From the NCBI GenBank assembly GCA_002269645.1, contig NIVC01002869.1, forward strand, positions 62,001 to 126,000: a stretch of DNA of 64,000 nt. Direction: 5' to 3'. A program made the position numbers and the translations under genes. Shown piece by piece: positions 13,141 to 56,000 of this stretch (within the stretch, counting starts at the first letter, position 1; every line of letters starts with the position of its first letter). The notes beneath the pieces were generated by a model. That model did no database searches. It was not told the origin of the DNA and saw nothing but the letters and a program-made list of their open reading frames with translations. Source of the stretch: Macrostomum lignano. Its lineage: Eukaryota.

Positions 13141-13160
13141 TGGTGATCTCGCCCAGGCTC
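13141..13160 (+). other. Primer binding site
   Basis: TGGTGATCTCGCCCAGGCTC, 2 nt after the LTR; its reverse complement GAGCCTGGGCGAGATCACCA fits tRNA positions 57-76. Confidence 0.88.
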
Positions 13161-13504
13161 AAGCGCTACCAGGCTAGATCGCTGAAAGTACTTTGACACA
13201 AGTCCTTTGCGCAAATTTTTCTGAACTTTTTACCGAACCGTCATTGTTTGCATAGAGACCCTTTGATTCTTCGTGCACCGTTTTATACTTTTGTTAAATT
13301 TGCGAATATCCTATCTCAATTTCTTTCTTTGGTAAAGGCAACACAGAATTTTTTTTGCCCCCGTGTCCATTTTTCTTTCTTCCTTTAAGTAAATAAGAGC
13401 TTGCACACACACACAACACTTGTTCGCCACTTTGAAAGTCCAATCTGGAAAATCCTTTGGAAATTGATCCAGATCTGGTCCTCTTGCCGTTCCCATTTGA
13501 AAAT

Positions 13505-16500
13505 ATGGCTCGAAGAAACCCTACAGTGCATCGCGATGTCAAGGAAACTGTTGGAATGTATACCATGGATAAAGATTTTAACACCTTCATTGAACACTTC
13601 GACCTTGTAACTCGCGAATACGGACTACAAAATCCAGAAAAGGCACTTCTTCTTCCTCCACTGTTAGAAGGTACTGCTCGAGAAATTTATGGCAAACTAA
13701 ATGCCGCCGCACAGCAAGACTATCATACTTTAGTTACACAACTGAGAGCACAATTCGCCAGATGTGGAACCAATCGATCTGTGCTTCTACACAAACTTCA
13801 TAATCGAAAAATGAGTCCGACGGAATCCTTCCTTACTTTCGTCGATGACGTCCGCAAAATTATTAAAGCGTTGCACCAGCCACCACCACCGAACCCAGGA
13901 GCTCAGCCTATCGGACCAGCAGAACTAGCTGCACGAGAAAGACAACGCCTTGCTGACCAAGAACAAAGCCTAATCCTCCATGTCATTAATAATGCTCAAC
14001 CTTCGCTGCGAGACAGGTTGTTAAGAGAAACCATTGAGACAGAGGAACAATTAATTCGTTGCGGCATGCAATGGGAAGCAAGTGCCCCACTCCTGACTTC
14101 TCGTAGTAGTGATACGACACAATTGGGAGAACAATTGAGCAAACTCATGCAGCAGTACCAAACTTCTGCAATCATGCCACAGCGACAGAGATACGCTCCG
14201 CCACCCACTTGTTACACCTGTGGAAGAATTGGTCATTACGCCAGAGACTGCCGATCACGTGGCAATCCAAGACAATATAATGACAACAGAAGAAAAAATT
14301 GGACTCGTCCTCAAAATCGCAATTGGAACCCACCACAGAATAGACAAGGAAATGCCTTGGTACCTTATCGACAACAAAGAAATCCTCCTCCTCCAAGACA
14401 GCCTACTCAGGTCCGCAGACAATATGCTCAAGCTATTGAACCGGAATACACTCAAGTCATCGAACCAGAGTTTAAGATAGAGGATCTTATGCCGGATTTC
14501 ACAATCAATGTCCTTGAGGAGTTTGAAAAACGAAAAGATAGCACAAGCAGCGAAAGTAGCTGCATGATGGATTCTCTGTTTGAAGAAGATCCACCCATTC
14601 CTACCTCTTCTAAAGCAAGTCCAGTCTCCCGAGAAAACAAAAGACAACAACAAACTATTTCTAAGCAACAAAGCAATCTATTTAAAGTTCCGACGATCGA
14701 CAATCTTTCGGAAACTCACCGAGATGACAATTTCCAGGATCGTAAAGAAATGACAACACTTGAAGAAGACAGAGATCCAGCAACTTCTCAAAACATCTTT
14801 GAAGAAAGCGTTGACATGTTGCAGGTCCTAGTCGACGATATAGACCTGTCAGAAACACCTCCAACACAGGAACCAGACTATGAAAATATTGTCTCCCCTA
14901 GTCCAGTCCACGAAAAATGGAAACATGACAAGGCCACGAACACACAATCTAACCATTCGACAGATGAAAAGTTCGTACAGACGGAGGATGACACATATGT
15001 TTCAATGAACCTAGACTATGAAAGCGAATATGATGAACCGATAACAATAATGGAACCGGTTAACACTCCAACTGATGAGAATACAACTACACATCTTACC
15101 AATATATCAAAATCAACCAACTTTATGCGTCCGATGTTGCAATCGCAGCCACCCACACCATTACCATGTTCTAACAAATGGCACTTTTCGACTCGCCTTA
15201 CTCCTCCGCCGTATCCTGAAGATAGTCATGACGAGATTGAAGACACTCCACCAGTACCAACAAGACGAAAGAAAAAACATCCGCTACTGCAATGCTTCCT
15301 CACGATCTTGATGATGGCAATTGTTCCCACGGTACTGCCGTCTCCATCTCCAATGATCTGTCCCACTGATGGAGACATCCAGCCAGTCATTTACAAGATT
15401 CCTACGGAAATCAAATGCAGTTACTTTAAGACAAACCAAACCAAGCCACTACCACTAACTATTGAAATATACAAAGCAAATACAAAGAAGCATCGACAAA
15501 TGGGAATTGTGTGCTTCCGAGACAAGGATGAAATTGAAAAGGTTTGGCTGGTACAATGGAACCGAATCAGGTATTGGCAAACTTCGATGATGGTATCACA
15601 AGAAGAATGCCTTCGGTGGAATCAAACTCTGTTTTCCGAAGATGGTCAATTAAAACTTCATGAGACGTCCGCCAGCGGAGCACAGCTATTTCGCACAAAA
15701 AATGTAGCCGATGGAAGATATGTCCATTATCATCAATCACGATGGCCTACATACTCAGTCTACAATAGCTACCTCATCCGAAATGTTTTATTCTACCACA
15801 ATCCATTTGACAACATGGAATCCTTACAGCTACCACTCGACCAGTGTCACTACAGCTCTGGATATTGTTCTACCCCTAACTACAACAAAGAAGAAGCTCA
15901 AAATTTACCCCTAGCACCGATTTATTTCCATGACTATCGATACCAAATTGAATATAGATCGGATTCCCGATATGAGGAGCCCAGCCGAACCCGCAAATAT
16001 TTCACTGCATGGGAAGTAAAAACTGAAATTGACTGCAAGCTGCAAAAATATCACACTGTTCAAGGGAAACTGCTATCTAACACCTTCCTTGCCGACTCAG
16101 GAGATTTGGCTCTTACATTTCCAAAGCAACCAAGCTACACACACTTGAAATGTAAAAACAAGGACGAGCAACTAATCCTCTCCGACCAAGAAATACCAAT
16201 CGCGCTTAAGGATATGGATAAGAATGTTTTCCTGAAGGTAGTAAATGGAACCTATCAGAGAAAAGATGTCATAGAACGACATAAGCGAGACCTACCTAAG
16301 CCTTCTCTAGTATCAGCACGCCTCGCTAATATCCAGGATCCACATCAACCTCAGTTCTATGTTCACATTCAACGTCTAAAACGTATCACTAACGACACTA
16401 CATTCCTCCCAGACCTACAAAATCCAGACCACACAAAAACAACAAATAAACACATTGCCACTGCACACGCCGAAACACAAACAACAAACGCACCACCTGT

Positions 16501-16531
16501 CGGTCATACGTACAACCTAAGACCTCGTTAA
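13505..16531 (+). CDS. 1008-aa Gag / spacer / signal peptide / truncated Env-like polyprotein
   Basis: ATG in good context (AAATATGG); Ty3-type capsid pattern (FIEHF...LLEGTAREIY...LRAQF...SPTESF); CYTCGRIGHYARDC at 14210-14251; hydrophobic segment after RRKKKH; Cys-containing ectodomain; RHKR furin site at 16277-16288. Confidence 0.9.
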   Translation: MARRNPTVHRDVKETVGMYTMDKDFNTFIEHFDLVTREYGLQNPEKALLLPPLLEGTAREIYGKLNAAAQQDYHTLVTQLRAQFARCGTNRSVLLHKLHNRKMSPTESFLTFVDDVRKIIKALHQPPPPNPGAQPIGPAELAARERQRLADQEQSLILHVINNAQPSLRDRLLRETIETEEQLIRCGMQWEASAPLLTSRSSDTTQLGEQLSKLMQQYQTSAIMPQRQRYAPPPTCYTCGRIGHYARDCRSRGNPRQYNDNRRKNWTRPQNRNWNPPQNRQGNALVPYRQQRNPPPPRQPTQVRRQYAQAIEPEYTQVIEPEFKIEDLMPDFTINVLEEFEKRKDSTSSESSCMMDSLFEEDPPIPTSSKASPVSRENKRQQQTISKQQSNLFKVPTIDNLSETHRDDNFQDRKEMTTLEEDRDPATSQNIFEESVDMLQVLVDDIDLSETPPTQEPDYENIVSPSPVHEKWKHDKATNTQSNHSTDEKFVQTEDDTYVSMNLDYESEYDEPITIMEPVNTPTDENTTTHLTNISKSTNFMRPMLQSQPPTPLPCSNKWHFSTRLTPPPYPEDSHDEIEDTPPVPTRRKKKHPLLQCFLTILMMAIVPTVLPSPSPMICPTDGDIQPVIYKIPTEIKCSYFKTNQTKPLPLTIEIYKANTKKHRQMGIVCFRDKDEIEKVWLVQWNRIRYWQTSMMVSQEECLRWNQTLFSEDGQLKLHETSASGAQLFRTKNVADGRYVHYHQSRWPTYSVYNSYLIRNVLFYHNPFDNMESLQLPLDQCHYSSGYCSTPNYNKEEAQNLPLAPIYFHDYRYQIEYRSDSRYEEPSRTRKYFTAWEVKTEIDCKLQKYHTVQGKLLSNTFLADSGDLALTFPKQPSYTHLKCKNKDEQLILSDQEIPIALKDMDKNVFLKVVNGTYQRKDVIERHKRDLPKPSLVSARLANIQDPHQPQFYVHIQRLKRITNDTTFLPDLQNPDHTKTTNKHIATAHAETQTTNAPPVGHTYNLRPR

Positions 16532-16662
16532 ATTATTCGCTTCATGTCCCCGTGTAGTGACCGGGATAAAGAATAGCACTACAGCTTCCTCAAGCTTGTC
16601 GTAAGAGGCGACTAAATCCTTGTTTTCCTACAAACGCTCACACAACTACGACAAACACGACA

Positions 16663-17313
16663 ATGGATTGTCCTATCTGTCTCGGAGAATTTTCATGTAA
16701 ACTACCTTGTATATGTGTCAATAGACACCAGGTGTGTGGTTCTTGCTTAAGCCTTGCACATTACAAAAAACCTTTAAAAAATTGCCCTATGTGTCGAGGT
16801 AATCTCCGTCAATGCATGATATGCAACTCCTGGCGCACTGAACAATATTGCTTAAATCAACATTTTATGTGCACACAATGTATTAAGAAGCTTGCTTATC
16901 GCTCCATTTGTCAGTGTCCTATATGCGATGCCACCCCTTTACCTAAAGTTAACAACAAACTTGCATGCATTCAAGCGGACTACAACCTACAGCTTCACCC
17001 ATTCACTTATGCTCTTTTTCCATCACATGCTATAATTATCCGCCTCAGATCATGGCCCATACCACGTGCTGCTCATAAAACACGTAAATACCTCGTTCGC
17101 TATTCCTCTTCCTACGGTTCTAGACTCCGGCAATTATCTCCACAAGAAATTGAACATAAGCTGTTTAAAATTGTTAACGATATGAATTTTCACCCATGCC
17201 CCATCCTCTGTACAGCTCTACCTGCACTCATTCTGCGTAATGAGGACTTGTCTTATATATTACCACCCCAAGAATCATATGACTATAATAGTTCCGCTTC
17301 AGAAATTGATTAA
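16663..17313 (+). CDS. Double RING-HC protein A (216 aa), putative E3 ubiquitin ligase
   Basis: Two C3HC4 arrays with C-x3-H spacing: C3,C6,C18,H22,C25,C28,C41,C44 and C51,C54,C63,H67,C70,C73,C85,C88; strong start context ACAATGG. Confidence 0.88.
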   Translation: MDCPICLGEFSCKLPCICVNRHQVCGSCLSLAHYKKPLKNCPMCRGNLRQCMICNSWRTEQYCLNQHFMCTQCIKKLAYRSICQCPICDATPLPKVNNKLACIQADYNLQLHPFTYALFPSHAIIIRLRSWPIPRAAHKTRKYLVRYSSSYGSRLRQLSPQEIEHKLFKIVNDMNFHPCPILCTALPALILRNEDLSYILPPQESYDYNSSASEID

Positions 17314-17385
17314 AATACCATGCACCCACAGATATTGCAACCATTCTTGCACAGATATTACTTATCAAATTGACCATTTTCAGAC

Positions 17386-17985
17386 ATGGATAGCGACGAG
17401 TGCATTGTTTGTTATGAAGACACTGAACAGTATGTCTACTGTCAGCATGGGCATAAGTTCTGCTATAACTGCTGCACAACGGATAGAATAGACAAATGCC
17501 CGCTATGCCGCGCACCACCTACCCTGTGCCAGGTATGCAATACAACACCGCAACAAAGGATGTGCGCCAACGGACACTGGGTCTGCCGAGATTGTGCTCT
17601 AAAAATTCGCTGCCGCGACTATAAGCATTGCATAACTTGTGCAGCGCCAATATCTAAGGAAATTTACGCCGGAACAACAACATTACCAAAGATCCAACTT
17701 ACAAAGGAGACCATGGACAGTATGACGGCCAAGGAACTAGCAACAGCTATACGAACCTGGCCAATACCATTCAACAAGAGAGACCATTTGGAATATCTTT
17801 TTGACTTGGTACGTCAATATGCGGCGCATCCAATAAATACTACGAGTACAACTGAAGAGATCTACCTGGAATTCCTCAACGCCACCGAATCAACACAATT
17901 TACGCCGATACAGCACTTACTGTGGCCACTCGCGAGATTGACAACCAAAGTAAACGATATACTGAATAATACGCTTTCCTATTAA
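17386..17985 (+). CDS. Double RING-HC protein B (199 aa), paralog of A
   Basis: C6,C9,C19,H23,C26,C29,C38,C41 and C48,C51,C60,H64,C67,C70,C82,C85; shares R[ST]WPIP with protein A. Confidence 0.88.
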   Translation: MDSDECIVCYEDTEQYVYCQHGHKFCYNCCTTDRIDKCPLCRAPPTLCQVCNTTPQQRMCANGHWVCRDCALKIRCRDYKHCITCAAPISKEIYAGTTTLPKIQLTKETMDSMTAKELATAIRTWPIPFNKRDHLEYLFDLVRQYAAHPINTTSTTEEIYLEFLNATESTQFTPIQHLLWPLARLTTKVNDILNNTLSY

Positions 17986-18163: not shown

Positions 18164-18175
18164 GAAAAGGGGAGA
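18164..18175 (+). other. Polypurine tract, preceded by an 8-bp hairpin
   Basis: GAAAAGGGGAGA, 3 nt before the 3' LTR; AAAATTCG-GGA-CGAATTTT at 18141-18159. Confidence 0.88.
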
Positions 18176-18178
18176 TAT

Positions 18179-19095
18179 TGTAGAGAGTTATTAGACCATA
18201 CCGTAATGCTCTACTTAAAGTAATATTCTAAGGAAGTCAATTTCTTTCAAAATGAGTCATATCTATTTTAGGAATCACGCGCAAACAGAATGATTTAGAA
18301 CCCTACATTGTTTGATCAAGGAACCGGATTTCAACAGCTGTATTTGTTTAACTCCATATATGGTAATGCTCAAACATGCATGACCGCTTAATCAAACATT
18401 TTTGACCTAAGTAAATACCCAATCCCAAACCGGTTTTTCTCCAAAATTTTGCTATAAATATAAGTGAAAATTCAAGTCAAAATTCAGACTCGGAGCGGTC
18501 TCTAAGAAGACACCGAAGAAATAAGAAGACCAATCTCTGAGGGACCATCCCTGTCCAATTGGTAAGCGTTTACCCGATTTAGTTAATTGTTAGTAGCGCT
18601 AATAAAGTGATTGATTGAGTATACGAGAGCAGTTCATTGTCGATACATTTGAGAAAGGCCTCCTTGTTTCCTAGGATATTCCTAGAGGATTTATTGATTT
18701 AATTGAGTTATCCGTTACGTTTCGGACGTAACGAAGAAGCCGCCCTTCAGGAGGACCTATCACAGAAAATTAGAGAATTCAATTGTTCATTAGGGCGCAA
18801 GTTCTATTGTGAATTCCGAGCTCGAGGACCGTTAAGAAGTTCTGATTCGCTCTCGTTTGGTCGACCCACAGATAAAGTTAAGGACACCAAAGAAAAACAG
18901 TGGTTCACCGGAACCGGTCGCCGTAACCGCTCAGCAAGCTTGCTATCCCGACGCGCCACAGAACTCCACCGGCTGCCGACCCCAAGAGGATCCGCTGAAG
19001 TAAGTTATTTGAACTGATAAATACCTAGGCACTTGTTCCCCCGTGTCTAGAAGTGGGAGTTTTTGAGTGACTGATCACCACTCTTAAACTCTTCA
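18179..19095 (+). repeat. 3' LTR (917 bp)
   Basis: Direct repeat of 12222-13138 at an offset of 5957. Confidence 0.97.
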
Positions 19096-53000: not shown

Positions 53001-56000
53001 TTTGCTCATCTATTTTCAACTCGAAGATCTGAGGCGCATTTTAGCCTATCTGAGCTACAGTCTAGCCTCAATCTGAGCTACAGTCTAGCCTCAATCTGAG
53101 CTACAGTCTAGCCTCAATCTGAGCTACAGTCTGGCCTCAATCTGAGCTACAGTCTAGCCTCAATCTGAGCTACAGTCTAGCCTCAATCTGAGCTACAGTC
53201 TAGCCTCAATCTGAGCTACAGTCTAGCCTCAATCTGAGCTACAGTCTAGCCTCAATCTGAGCTACAGTCTAGCCTCAATCTGAGCTACAGTCTAGCCTCA
53301 ATCTGAGCTACAGTCTAGCCTCAATCTGAGCTACAGTCTAGCCTCAATCTGAGCTACAGTCTAGCCTCAATCTGAGCTACAGTCTAGCCTCAATCTGAGC
53401 TACAGTCTAGCCTCAATCTGAGCTACAGTCTAGCCTCAATCTGAGCTACAGTCTAGCCTCAATCTGAGCTACAGTCTAGCCTCAATCTGAGCTACAGTCT
53501 AGCCTCAATCTGAGCTACAGTCTAGCCTCAATCTGAGCTACAGTCTAGCCTCAATCTGAGCTACAGTCTAGCCTCAATCTGAGCTACAGTCTAGCCTCAA
53601 TCTGAGCTACAGTCTAGCCTCAATCTGAGCTACAGTCTAGCCTCAATCTGAGCTACAGTCTAGCCTCAATCTGAGCTACAGTCTAGCCTCAATCTGAGCT
53701 ACAGTCTAGCCTCAATCTGAGCTACAGTCTAGCCTCAATCTGAGCTACAGTCTAGCCTCAATCTGAGCTACAGTCTAGCCTCAATCTGAGCTACAGTCTA
53801 GCCTCAATCTGAGCTACAGTCTAGCCTCAATCTGAGCTACAGTCTAGCCTCAATCTGAGCTACAGTCTAGCCTCAATCTGAGCTACAGTCTAGCCTCAAT
53901 CTGAGCTACAGTCTAGCCTCAATCTGAGCTACAGTCTAGCCTCAATCTGAGCTACAGTCTAGCCTCAATTTGAGCAAACCAAAGCAACCTAAAAGATGCG
54001 TCCTCACCAGAGCAGCGTGGGATTCTACAATTGCGCTGGCACTGTTCGCTGCATCAGCTGAGGCATCCCAGGCGGACTGCAGCTGCTGCAGCAGTCGATC
54101 TCGGGAGCCAATGTTTGAGAAGGTTACCTAAAAAAGTGTGACAAAAGAAGCATTTTTTATATTAAATAGTTAATGCAGATTGGCAAAGCTTATGACTCAA
54201 GTTATTTTTCTGATGCCCAAAACATAGTGACTTAGAGCTTTATGACATAGATCCTTATGACTCAGATCCTTATGAACCAGATCCATATGACCCAGATCCT
54301 TATGACCCGGATCCTTATGACCCAGATCCTTATGACCCAGATCCTTATGACCAAGATTCTTATGACCCAGATCCTTATGACCCAGATCCTTATGACCCAG
54401 ATCCTTATCACCCAGATCCTTATCATCCAGATCCTTATGACCCAGATCCTTATCATCCAGATCCTTATGACCTAGATTCAAATGACCTAGATTCTTATGA
54501 CCCAGATCCTTATGACCCAGATCCTTATGACCCAGATCCTTATGACCCAGATCCTTATGACCCAGATCCTTATGACCCAGATCCTTATGACTCAGATCCT
54601 TATCATCCAGATCCTTATGACCCAGATCCTTATCATCCAGATCCTTATGACCCAGATCCTTATGACCTAGATTCAAATGACCTAGATTCAAATGACCTAG
54701 ATCCTTATGACCCAGATCCTTATGACCCAGATCCTTTTGACCCAGATCCTTATGACCCAGATCCTTATCACCCAGATCCTTATCATCCAGATCCTTATGA
54801 CCCAGATCCTTATCATCCAGATCCTTATGACCTAGATTCAAATGATTTAGATTCTTATGACCCAGATCCTTATGACCCAGATCCTTATGACCCAGATCCT
54901 TATGACCCAGATCCTTATGACCCAGATCCTTATGATCCAGATCCTTATGACCCAGATCCTTATGACCCAGATCCTTATCATCCAGATCCTTATGACCTAG
55001 ATTCAAATGACCTAGATTCTTATGACCCAGATCCTTATGACCCAGATCCTTATGACGCAGATCCTTATGACCCAGATCCTTATGACCCAGATCCTTATGA
55101 CCCAGATCCTTATCACCCAGATCCTTATCATCCAGATCCTTATGACCCAGATCCTTATCATCCAGATCCTTATGACCTAGATTCAAATGACCTAGATTCT
55201 TATGACCCAGATCCTTATGACCCAGATCCTTATGACTCAGATCCTTATGACCCAGATCCTTATGACCCAGATTCTTATGACCCAGATCCTTATGACCCAG
55301 ATCCTTATCACCCAGATCCTTATCATCCAGATCCTTATGACCCAGATCCTTATCATCCAGATCCTTATGACCTAGATTCAAATGACCTAGATTCTTATGA
55401 CCCAGATCCTTATGACCCAGATCCTTATGACCCAGATCCTTATGACCCAGATCCTTATGACCCAGATCCTTATGATCCAGATCCTTATGACCCAGATCCT
55501 TATGACCCTGATCCTTATCATCCAGATCCTTATGACCTAGATTCAAATGACCTAGATTCTTATGACCCAGATCCTTATGACCCAGATCCTTATGACGCAG
55601 ATCCTTATGACCCAGATCCTTATGACCCAGATCCTTATGACCCAGATCCTTATGACCCAGATCCTTATGACCCAGATCCTTATGACCCAGATCCTTATGA
55701 CCCAAATGCAAAACTCGTAATGCACTGTAAGCCTCTCACCGCCCGCTGAGCCGTGGCGATTCTGATCCCGGTGGGAAACAGGGAGAAAACCTTCTCCTTG
55801 CAGATGGAGACGACGTCAGAGAATTTTAGTTTCACCTGATATCGTAATTGTGAATCAGTTTGCACTTTTGTCAGTAATCAATCATGTGTGAATGCCAAGG
55901 TAATGGTTCTGCAGCAAAACTTACCTCCGGGGTGAGGCTGGGCAGTGCCGGCCAGAAGCAGATGTGACGGCGAGTGATCACGATGGTGCCGCGTGCGGGC

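Follow-up and report, generated by a model that had tools for sequence, protein, structure and literature searches.

A conserved tyrosine-containing block in the acidic Gag-Env spacer of a Macrostomum lignano errantivirus is a candidate docking site for host SH2 proteins

A 1,031-codon open frame (13436-16531, ATG at 13505) in a 64,000-nt stretch of Macrostomum lignano contig NIVC01002869.1 (hereafter the window) forms part of an LTR element, in which an acidic spacer separates Gag from the envelope protein (Env). This arrangement raises the question of what the spacer is: a remnant of pol, a passive linker, or a segment that engages host proteins. An initial annotation of the locus had favored the last possibility, describing a disordered, host-signalling module with clustered phosphotyrosine motifs and a PPxY late domain. 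Here, we compared the window copy with its intact siblings and more distant relatives.

Layout of the element and its intact siblings

The window copy consists of the following features:

12222..13138, + strand: 5' LTR of 917 nt, with 2 mismatches to the 3' LTR and the target-site duplication CTCG before it
13141..13152, + strand: primer-binding-site-like 12-mer directly 3' of the LTR, with a reverse complement identical to the PBS that the PMC13524379 supplement gives for Mlig_errantivirus_2
13505..14251, + strand: Gag, with a helical capsid-like region and a CCHC zinc knuckle (14210-14251; Pfam zf-CCHC, E=7e-7)
14400..15277, + strand: acidic Gag-Env leader or spacer, predicted cytosolic, with RRKKK (15263-15277) at its C-terminal end
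14423..14437, + strand: YAQAI, the likely protease site ending Gag, proposed by eye from a VNAV/ANAI/VNSI-type motif that recurs at domain borders of relatives
14870..15016, + strand: gapless conserved 49-aa block containing YEN[IL] (Y at 14879), NT (14939-14944), QTED (14978-14989), and TY[VL]xM (14993-15007)
15029..15040, + strand: YDEP, the third acidic tyrosine motif, of which relatives have differing versions
15203..15214, + strand: PPPY, at a position not kept in relatives
15278..15334, + strand: predicted hydrophobic internal signal or signal-anchor of Env, the single 19-residue window above 1.3 (Kyte-Doolittle) reported in the ORF (1.69)
15350..16315, + strand: N-terminal portion of a class III, gB-like Env ectodomain that carries a furin-type RHKR (16277-16288); the transmembrane anchor is absent from this copy
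16316..16320, + strand: deletion junction with 5-nt microhomology; 4,416 nt are gone and the frame is intact
16316..16531, + strand: integrase C-terminal tail, fused in frame to the Env fragment, with a 99.8% match to the ORF end of a sibling
16663..17313, + strand: accessory Cys-rich ORF, without a Pfam family at the cut-off
17374..17985, + strand: accessory RING-finger ORF (Pfam zf-C3HC4_3, E=7.6e-8, above the cut-off)
18164..19095, + strand: polypurine tract and 3' LTR (18179-19095), followed by CTCG

Residues 1-190 of Gag gave a helical AlphaFold model (pLDDT mostly 50-85), and the dN/dS of Gag was 0.01-0.05; a PDB sequence search matched essentially the zinc knuckle and little else. In the relatives read, a basic cluster and then a hydrophobic stretch also lie upstream of Env. 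The open frame at 13436-13504, upstream of the Gag ATG, encodes a segment conserved across subfamilies (L[ED][ND]PL[EQ]IDP[DN]LxLxxFP/YP, 5/5 loci), which suggests an N-terminal extension reached by a non-AUG start or a spliced exon, and a pyrimidine tract ending in AG is located at approximately 13370-13389. The two accessory ORFs lie between the pol end and the 3' LTR, and a Cys-rich ORF is similarly located 3' of pol in locus L083. The window contains no tRNA genes; it carries large satellite arrays with 24-nt and 15-nt units at 1-3119 and 54100-55750, the 24-nt array having an inverted arm at the window start.

Other copies in the same genome are 98-100% identical in Gag and Env and have frames of approximately 2,500 aa. 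Sibling L079 encodes one 2,480-aa protein consisting of Gag, the zinc knuckle, an identical spacer, the signal, the gB-like Env, its anchor, PR, RT, RH, and IN. Pfam scanning gave the order PR-RT-RH-IN in 4/4 polyproteins, with env located between gag and pol, and the LTRs, PBS, PPT, and target-site duplication are all present. The Env ectodomain of L079 was modelled with a mean pLDDT of 66 and a pTM of 0.44, and all Foldseek matches listed for this model were herpesvirus gB (best E=1e-18, TM-score 0.23); given this global TM-score and model pTM, the likeness to gB is at the domain level only. The Pfam family PF24664 was above the cut-off in L087, below it in L079 (E=3e-4), and absent in the other two of the four polyproteins. 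Based on the layout, the LTRs, and the Env likeness of the intact siblings, the family is a GAG-ENV-POL gB-type Ty3/gypsy errantivirus. In two distant families, L085 (3290-5575) and L092 (3212-5677), a long Thr/Pro-rich, mucin-like insert lies within the Env ectodomain, which is 762 aa and 822 aa long, respectively, compared with approximately 550.

The GAG-ENV-POL order with an HSV/gB-type Env is described for Ty3/gypsy errantiviruses of Platyhelminthes, Nematoda, and Bryozoa in the consulted text of PMC13524379, and the part of its supplement consulted contains the entry Platyhelminthes_Rhabditophora_Mlig_errantivirus_2 from Macrostomum lignano. As far as these sources describe them, Mlig_errantivirus_2 and the other GAG-ENV-POL errantiviruses share with the present family the gene order, the gB-like Env, the LTRs, and the young multi-copy state, and the Macrostomum entry also has the same 12-nt PBS, but the window copy differs in having neither pol nor an Env anchor. 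A term search of the supplement found no sequence for the Macrostomum entry. In the public databases, P0005 (UniRef name: M. lignano) shares 99.5% identity with the L083 protein of the sister subfamily across 1,488 aa and 68% identity with L079. The part of PMC12801592 consulted classifies Macrostomum LTR families and uses the term "env" once; its supplements may list the family of the window element.

Comparison of the window copy with L079 revealed a 4,416-nt in-frame deletion at 16316-16320, approximately 1 kb downstream of the spacer, which took the rest of env, the anchor, the tail, PR, RT, RH, and most of IN. Since an intact env with its anchor and an intact pol are missing through this deletion, the window copy is a non-autonomous derivative. 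The identical junction occurs on six contigs, and the four with flanks examined sit at four distinct places in the genome, each bordered by a 4-nt duplication of its own, indicating that the deleted form has multiplied, presumably with enzymes supplied by intact copies. A GT..AG skip of 310 nt within the LTR (window 12603-12914), possibly an intron in the 5' leader, was observed in three putative RNA runs and was absent in a fourth. Contigs from two of these three runs span the deletion junction, which gives only a hint that the deleted form is transcribed. A comparable case is the rotifer TelKA2n, a non-autonomous env-retaining LTR family (PMC5408684, consulted in part); both are multiplied, pol-deleted derivatives of env-carrying families, but TelKA2n has retained env and lost a portion of gag, whereas in the window copy gag and the leader remain together with only the beginning of env, which lacks the anchor. 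A second multiplied deletion derivative has gag alone between its LTRs (C70, C1130, and C3022, loci L053-L055), with the joint running from 14280 to 17939 in window coordinates. The spacer is thus dispensable in cis, since spacer-less, Gag-only derivatives have multiplied too (three contigs).

Spacer motifs and their conservation

The initial annotation had described the spacer as standing where pol should be. This placement does not apply to the family, in which pol sits behind env and, in the window copy, was deleted downstream of the spacer. Its further statement that the spacer is not decayed pol agrees with our data: the same spacer stands in intact siblings that have a full pol, BLASTP against that pol gave a best E of 0.29, and the window ORF had no match to pol Pfam domains. 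The spacer does begin at the Gag end, the position at which the protease starts in ordinary Ty3/gypsy elements, but with an identical spacer in copies that have an intact pol behind env, a pol remnant is effectively refuted and in our view scarcely credible.

All four motifs of the initial annotation are present in one open frame: EPDYENI (14870-14890), DDTYVSM (14987-15007), SEYDEPI (15023-15043), and PPPY (15203-15214), with the three motif tyrosines (Y 14879, Y 14996, and Y 15029) spanning 51 codons. The spacer is acidic, with 58 D+E against 29 K+R in 293 aa, and both this composition and the indels that occur freely between relatives speak for disorder. An AlphaFold model of Gag, spacer, and Env start had a mean pLDDT of 35 and is uninformative on disorder, since scores were just as low in the part of Env that is folded. 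The spacer precedes the basic cluster and the hydrophobic signal, from which a cytosolic location is predicted, in line with the initial annotation. In 100,000 composition-keeping shuffles of the spacer, the individual motifs occurred at frequencies of 0.16 (acid-YxN), 0.10 (acid-YxxM), 0.01 (YDE[PV]), and 0.07 (PPxY), and all four occurred jointly at 7e-5, a post hoc value. On a lenient list of 8 motif classes, 5/7 tyrosines matched against 2.9 expected (P=0.10), so that motif clustering within one sequence is weak evidence.

The relatives compared, with their Gag identities, are C583 (99%), C391/C4009 (84-85%), C2112/C106 of the sister subfamily (78-79%), and a public protein, P0004 (65%). 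Over its whole length, the spacer evolves with a dN/dS of 0.54 against C583 and 0.45 between C2112 and C106, compared with 0.01-0.09 for Gag and Env, and one 44-codon stretch reaches 1.27. The distance from a PDF/MDF anchor to the Env start varies between 160 and 291 aa among relatives, with the indels lying outside the 49-aa block. Relative to C391 and P0004, the spacer of the window family has an insert of approximately 100 aa (~14500-14810), possibly derived from duplication of a short block that follows the Gag end.

Alignment of the block in five sequences (window, C583, C391, C4009, and P0004) is gapless, and 12/49 columns are invariant in all five, namely YEN, NT, QTED, TY, and M. Synonymous differences are found at 9/12 of the invariant codons against C391 and at 8/12 against C4009; over the block, pS against C391 is 0.94, with synonymous sites near saturation, and pN is 0.37. 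The expectation that the motifs would be conserved islands was only partly borne out, as YEN[IL] and TY[VL]xM are invariant in 5/5 sequences and YDEP and PPPY are not. Of the 11 key residues in the motifs of the initial annotation, 4 are invariant, and whether this exceeds the surroundings depends on the background chosen: 21/98 for the remaining columns that could be aligned across four sequences (p=0.22), and 21/251 for spacer residues (p=0.014).

The block has a narrow distribution, being held, judged from the sequences at hand, by only about three independent lineages (window/C583, C391/C4009, and P0004). The sister subfamily C2112/C106/C3126 (Gag 78%), which is present in multiple copies, has an acidic spacer with other tyrosines, in which YEN, YxxM, and the block are absent, and the block is likewise absent from 5/5 distant loci of the M. 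lignano genome; a linker with YEN and YxxM occurred in only 3/11 large loci examined. Protein database searches returned few relatives, only P0004 and, from another search, only P0005. A search of representatives gave 474 matches, of which 150 were listed; among the 10 read of those listed, picked for Env match or length, 6 distant Gag-to-Env relatives have linkers of approximately 30-75 aa (by eye) in which the motifs are absent. When the block was searched against its own genome, all 15 matches fell at places also matched by the family spacer, Gag, or Env searches, and 0/15 lay outside an element as a host origin would have it, with the reservation that a 49-aa query is weak and does not bridge introns. 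The sister subfamily lacking the block is nearer in Gag (78%) than the block-bearing P0004 (65%). The Env tree gives no firm branching order for the window copy, C391, and P0004; by identity P0004 is the outlier, which favors a loss of the block in the sister subfamily over a gain.

The remaining two motifs are kept less well. For the Nck-type YDEP, the form YD[DE]P is confined to the two closest copies; C583 has YDDP, P0004 has YEEI with the spacing unchanged, and C391/C4009 have a displaced YEEL. PPxY corresponds to the NEDD4-type consensus, and PTAP and YPxI/L to the TSG101/ALIX consensus. The position of PPPY, which had been read as a late domain of the spacer, is shared only with C583, where the stretch is identical in protein. 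PPAY is located elsewhere in C391/C4009, the P0004 fragment is without PPxY, and C2112/C106/C3126 have PPxY in the Env tail. One PPxY in a predicted cytosolic segment was found in 6/6 near relatives, in the spacer of 3 and the Env tail of 3 (the C391 frame being incomplete), and these placements represent about three independent events. As PPxY shifts between spacer and tail, a movable accessory WW-domain site fits better than a fixed late domain. Across 11 loci, the segment from the Env anchor to the protease contains P[TS]AP in 9/11, YPx(1-3)[LI] in 9/11, and at least one of them in 11/11. The best-conserved late-domain-type (ESCRT-type) motifs thus sit in the Env tail, which was lost from the window copy, and not in the spacer.

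Candidate partners of the conserved block

YxxM and YDE[PV] correspond to consensus motifs of the p85 and Nck SH2 domains, and YxxPhi to that of AP adaptors. In the block, the residues that set specificity in both tyrosine motifs (Y and +2 N; Y and +3 M) are among the invariant ones. The spacer is a clade-specific, likely cytosolic leader that probably docks host SH2 proteins, and we rate it about as likely as not that the block itself would, tethered to the membrane on its cytosolic side, be the place where such phosphotyrosine-binding proteins of the host attach. Six of the 12 invariant residues (NT and QTED) lie outside any SH2 motif, and three other readings of the block were weighed.

The block may instead mainly be a docking and dimerising site for the dynein light chain LC8 (DYNLL), with QT and NT, separated by 13 residues, as its two anchors and with the tyrosines on either side regulating or accompanying it. 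E follows QT in 5/5 sequences (FVQTE, FAQTE, FTQTE twice, and KRTQTE), with TQTE in 3/5 and VQTE and AQTE in the others. As described in the consulted text of PMC6607443, LC8 partners favor an anchor Q with T to either side of it and D/E/P at +2, and MAST1 SVQTED is among the VQT cases; the QT-then-E pattern of the block resembles these anchors. An xTQT is also located at the integrase end in 6/6 frames read to the end with a standard tail (L079, L081, L083, L090, L096, and the distant L085), the genome encodes a canonical LC8, and IQT is kept in the spacer of the sister subfamily. The window copy retains xTQT near its integrase C-terminus (~16470-16490). However, a bulky aromatic residue at -2 disfavors binding according to the same text, and F occupies this position in 4/5 sequences; that text gives no backing for NT as an anchor, and this reading does not account for the invariance of N at +2 and M at +3 in the tyrosine motifs. 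On these sequence comparisons, we consider LC8 docking as the main function unlikely.

A second reading takes the tyrosines as unphosphorylated sorting signals (YxxPhi for AP adaptors, together with acidic clusters) that would route the Gag-Env precursor to the assembly membrane. YENI/YENL and YVSM/YVMM/YVTM/YLSM fit YxxPhi, with a hydrophobic +3 residue in 5/5 sequences, and the surrounding spacer is strongly acidic, but the invariant E+1 and N+2 and the strict M+3 are narrower than YxxPhi requires, and three YxxPhi motifs arise in 15% of composition shuffles. We therefore regard sorting as quite unlikely.

The third reading, that the block is an interface within the element (leader-capsid, leader-leader, or protease recognition) or that the spacer is a mere flexible tether with residual islands, draws on the fixed 49-residue spacing, which suggests a shaped contact, and on the weak constraint of the spacer (dN/dS about 0.5; 1.27 in 44 codons) and the short, motif-free linkers of distant relatives. 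Against an interface, the sister subfamily without the block has a Gag that is 78% identical; against a tether, the invariant codons carry synonymous changes, which argues that the islands are not mere residue; and against both, the invariant positions coincide with the specificity positions of host motifs. We judge this reading distinctly improbable.

Proposed role in exit and its significance

Returning to SH2 docking, the following mechanism may be proposed. The internal signal, which follows RRKKK, would take the chain into the ER, with Gag and the spacer staying cytosolic and tethered, and in intact copies the Env anchor would bring pol back to the cytosol. The element protease, supplied by an intact copy in the case of the window copy, would cut where Gag ends. 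The acidic tyrosines would be targets, at the membrane, of Src/Abl-type kinases of the host; once phosphorylated, pYEN[IL] would recruit a Grb2-type adaptor leading to actin nucleation and pY[VL]xM would recruit a PI3K p85-type subunit. Particle exit or cell-to-cell passage would thereby be helped, as in reovirus p14 and vaccinia A36. PPxY would act as an accessory, movable NEDD4-type site, with PTAP and YPxI/L in the Env tail as the main late domains.

In the consulted text of PMC7244324, Src phosphorylation of YVNI in p14 leads to Grb2 binding and actin nucleation through N-WASP, although of the 5 predicted tyrosines of p14 only 1 mattered. In vaccinia A36, Y112 binds Nck and Y132 binds Grb2 (PMC9333988, consulted in part). 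As far as these sources describe them, the tail of p14, a FAST protein of reptilian orthoreovirus, and A36 resemble what is proposed for the present spacer in being membrane-tethered cytosolic segments with SH2-docking tyrosines, and p14 is mostly disordered; their tails, however, are C-terminal and their binding is tested, whereas the segment here is N-terminal to the Env signal and fused to Gag, and no homology is claimed. The Env leader peptide of foamy viruses, in the descriptions consulted, is, as predicted for the present spacer, a long cytosolic N-terminal leader linking capsid and glycoprotein, but in the present family Gag and leader form one chain, with a class III Env and an acidic, variable leader. 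A fuller version of the mechanism, in which one flatworm errantivirus clade would have an A36/p14-like platform that recruits Grb2-type and PI3K SH2 proteins and LC8 at fixed spacing for actin- or microtubule-powered exit and cell-to-cell spread, with the pol-less derivative keeping the platform and parasitising intact copies, seems doubtful.

The GAG-ENV-POL layout is already published, and there is nothing unusual in non-autonomous derivatives. Searches of the openly accessible literature yielded no description of the conserved tyrosine/QT block, nor of a retrotransposon using phosphotyrosine signalling; the consulted main text of PMC13524379 does not mention tyrosine, late domain, budding, ESCRT, disordered, or RING. 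The value of the finding is limited by the published gene order, the confinement of the block to one clade, and the inferred nature of the docking. How env-carrying invertebrate retrotransposons exit and reach the germ line is a largely untested question, and the GAG-ENV-POL polyprotein places the capsid on a membrane tether. If true, a conserved host-docking block in this tether would represent a retrotransposon exploiting phosphotyrosine signalling and would provide a small, peptide-level handle on exit in a genetically tractable flatworm.
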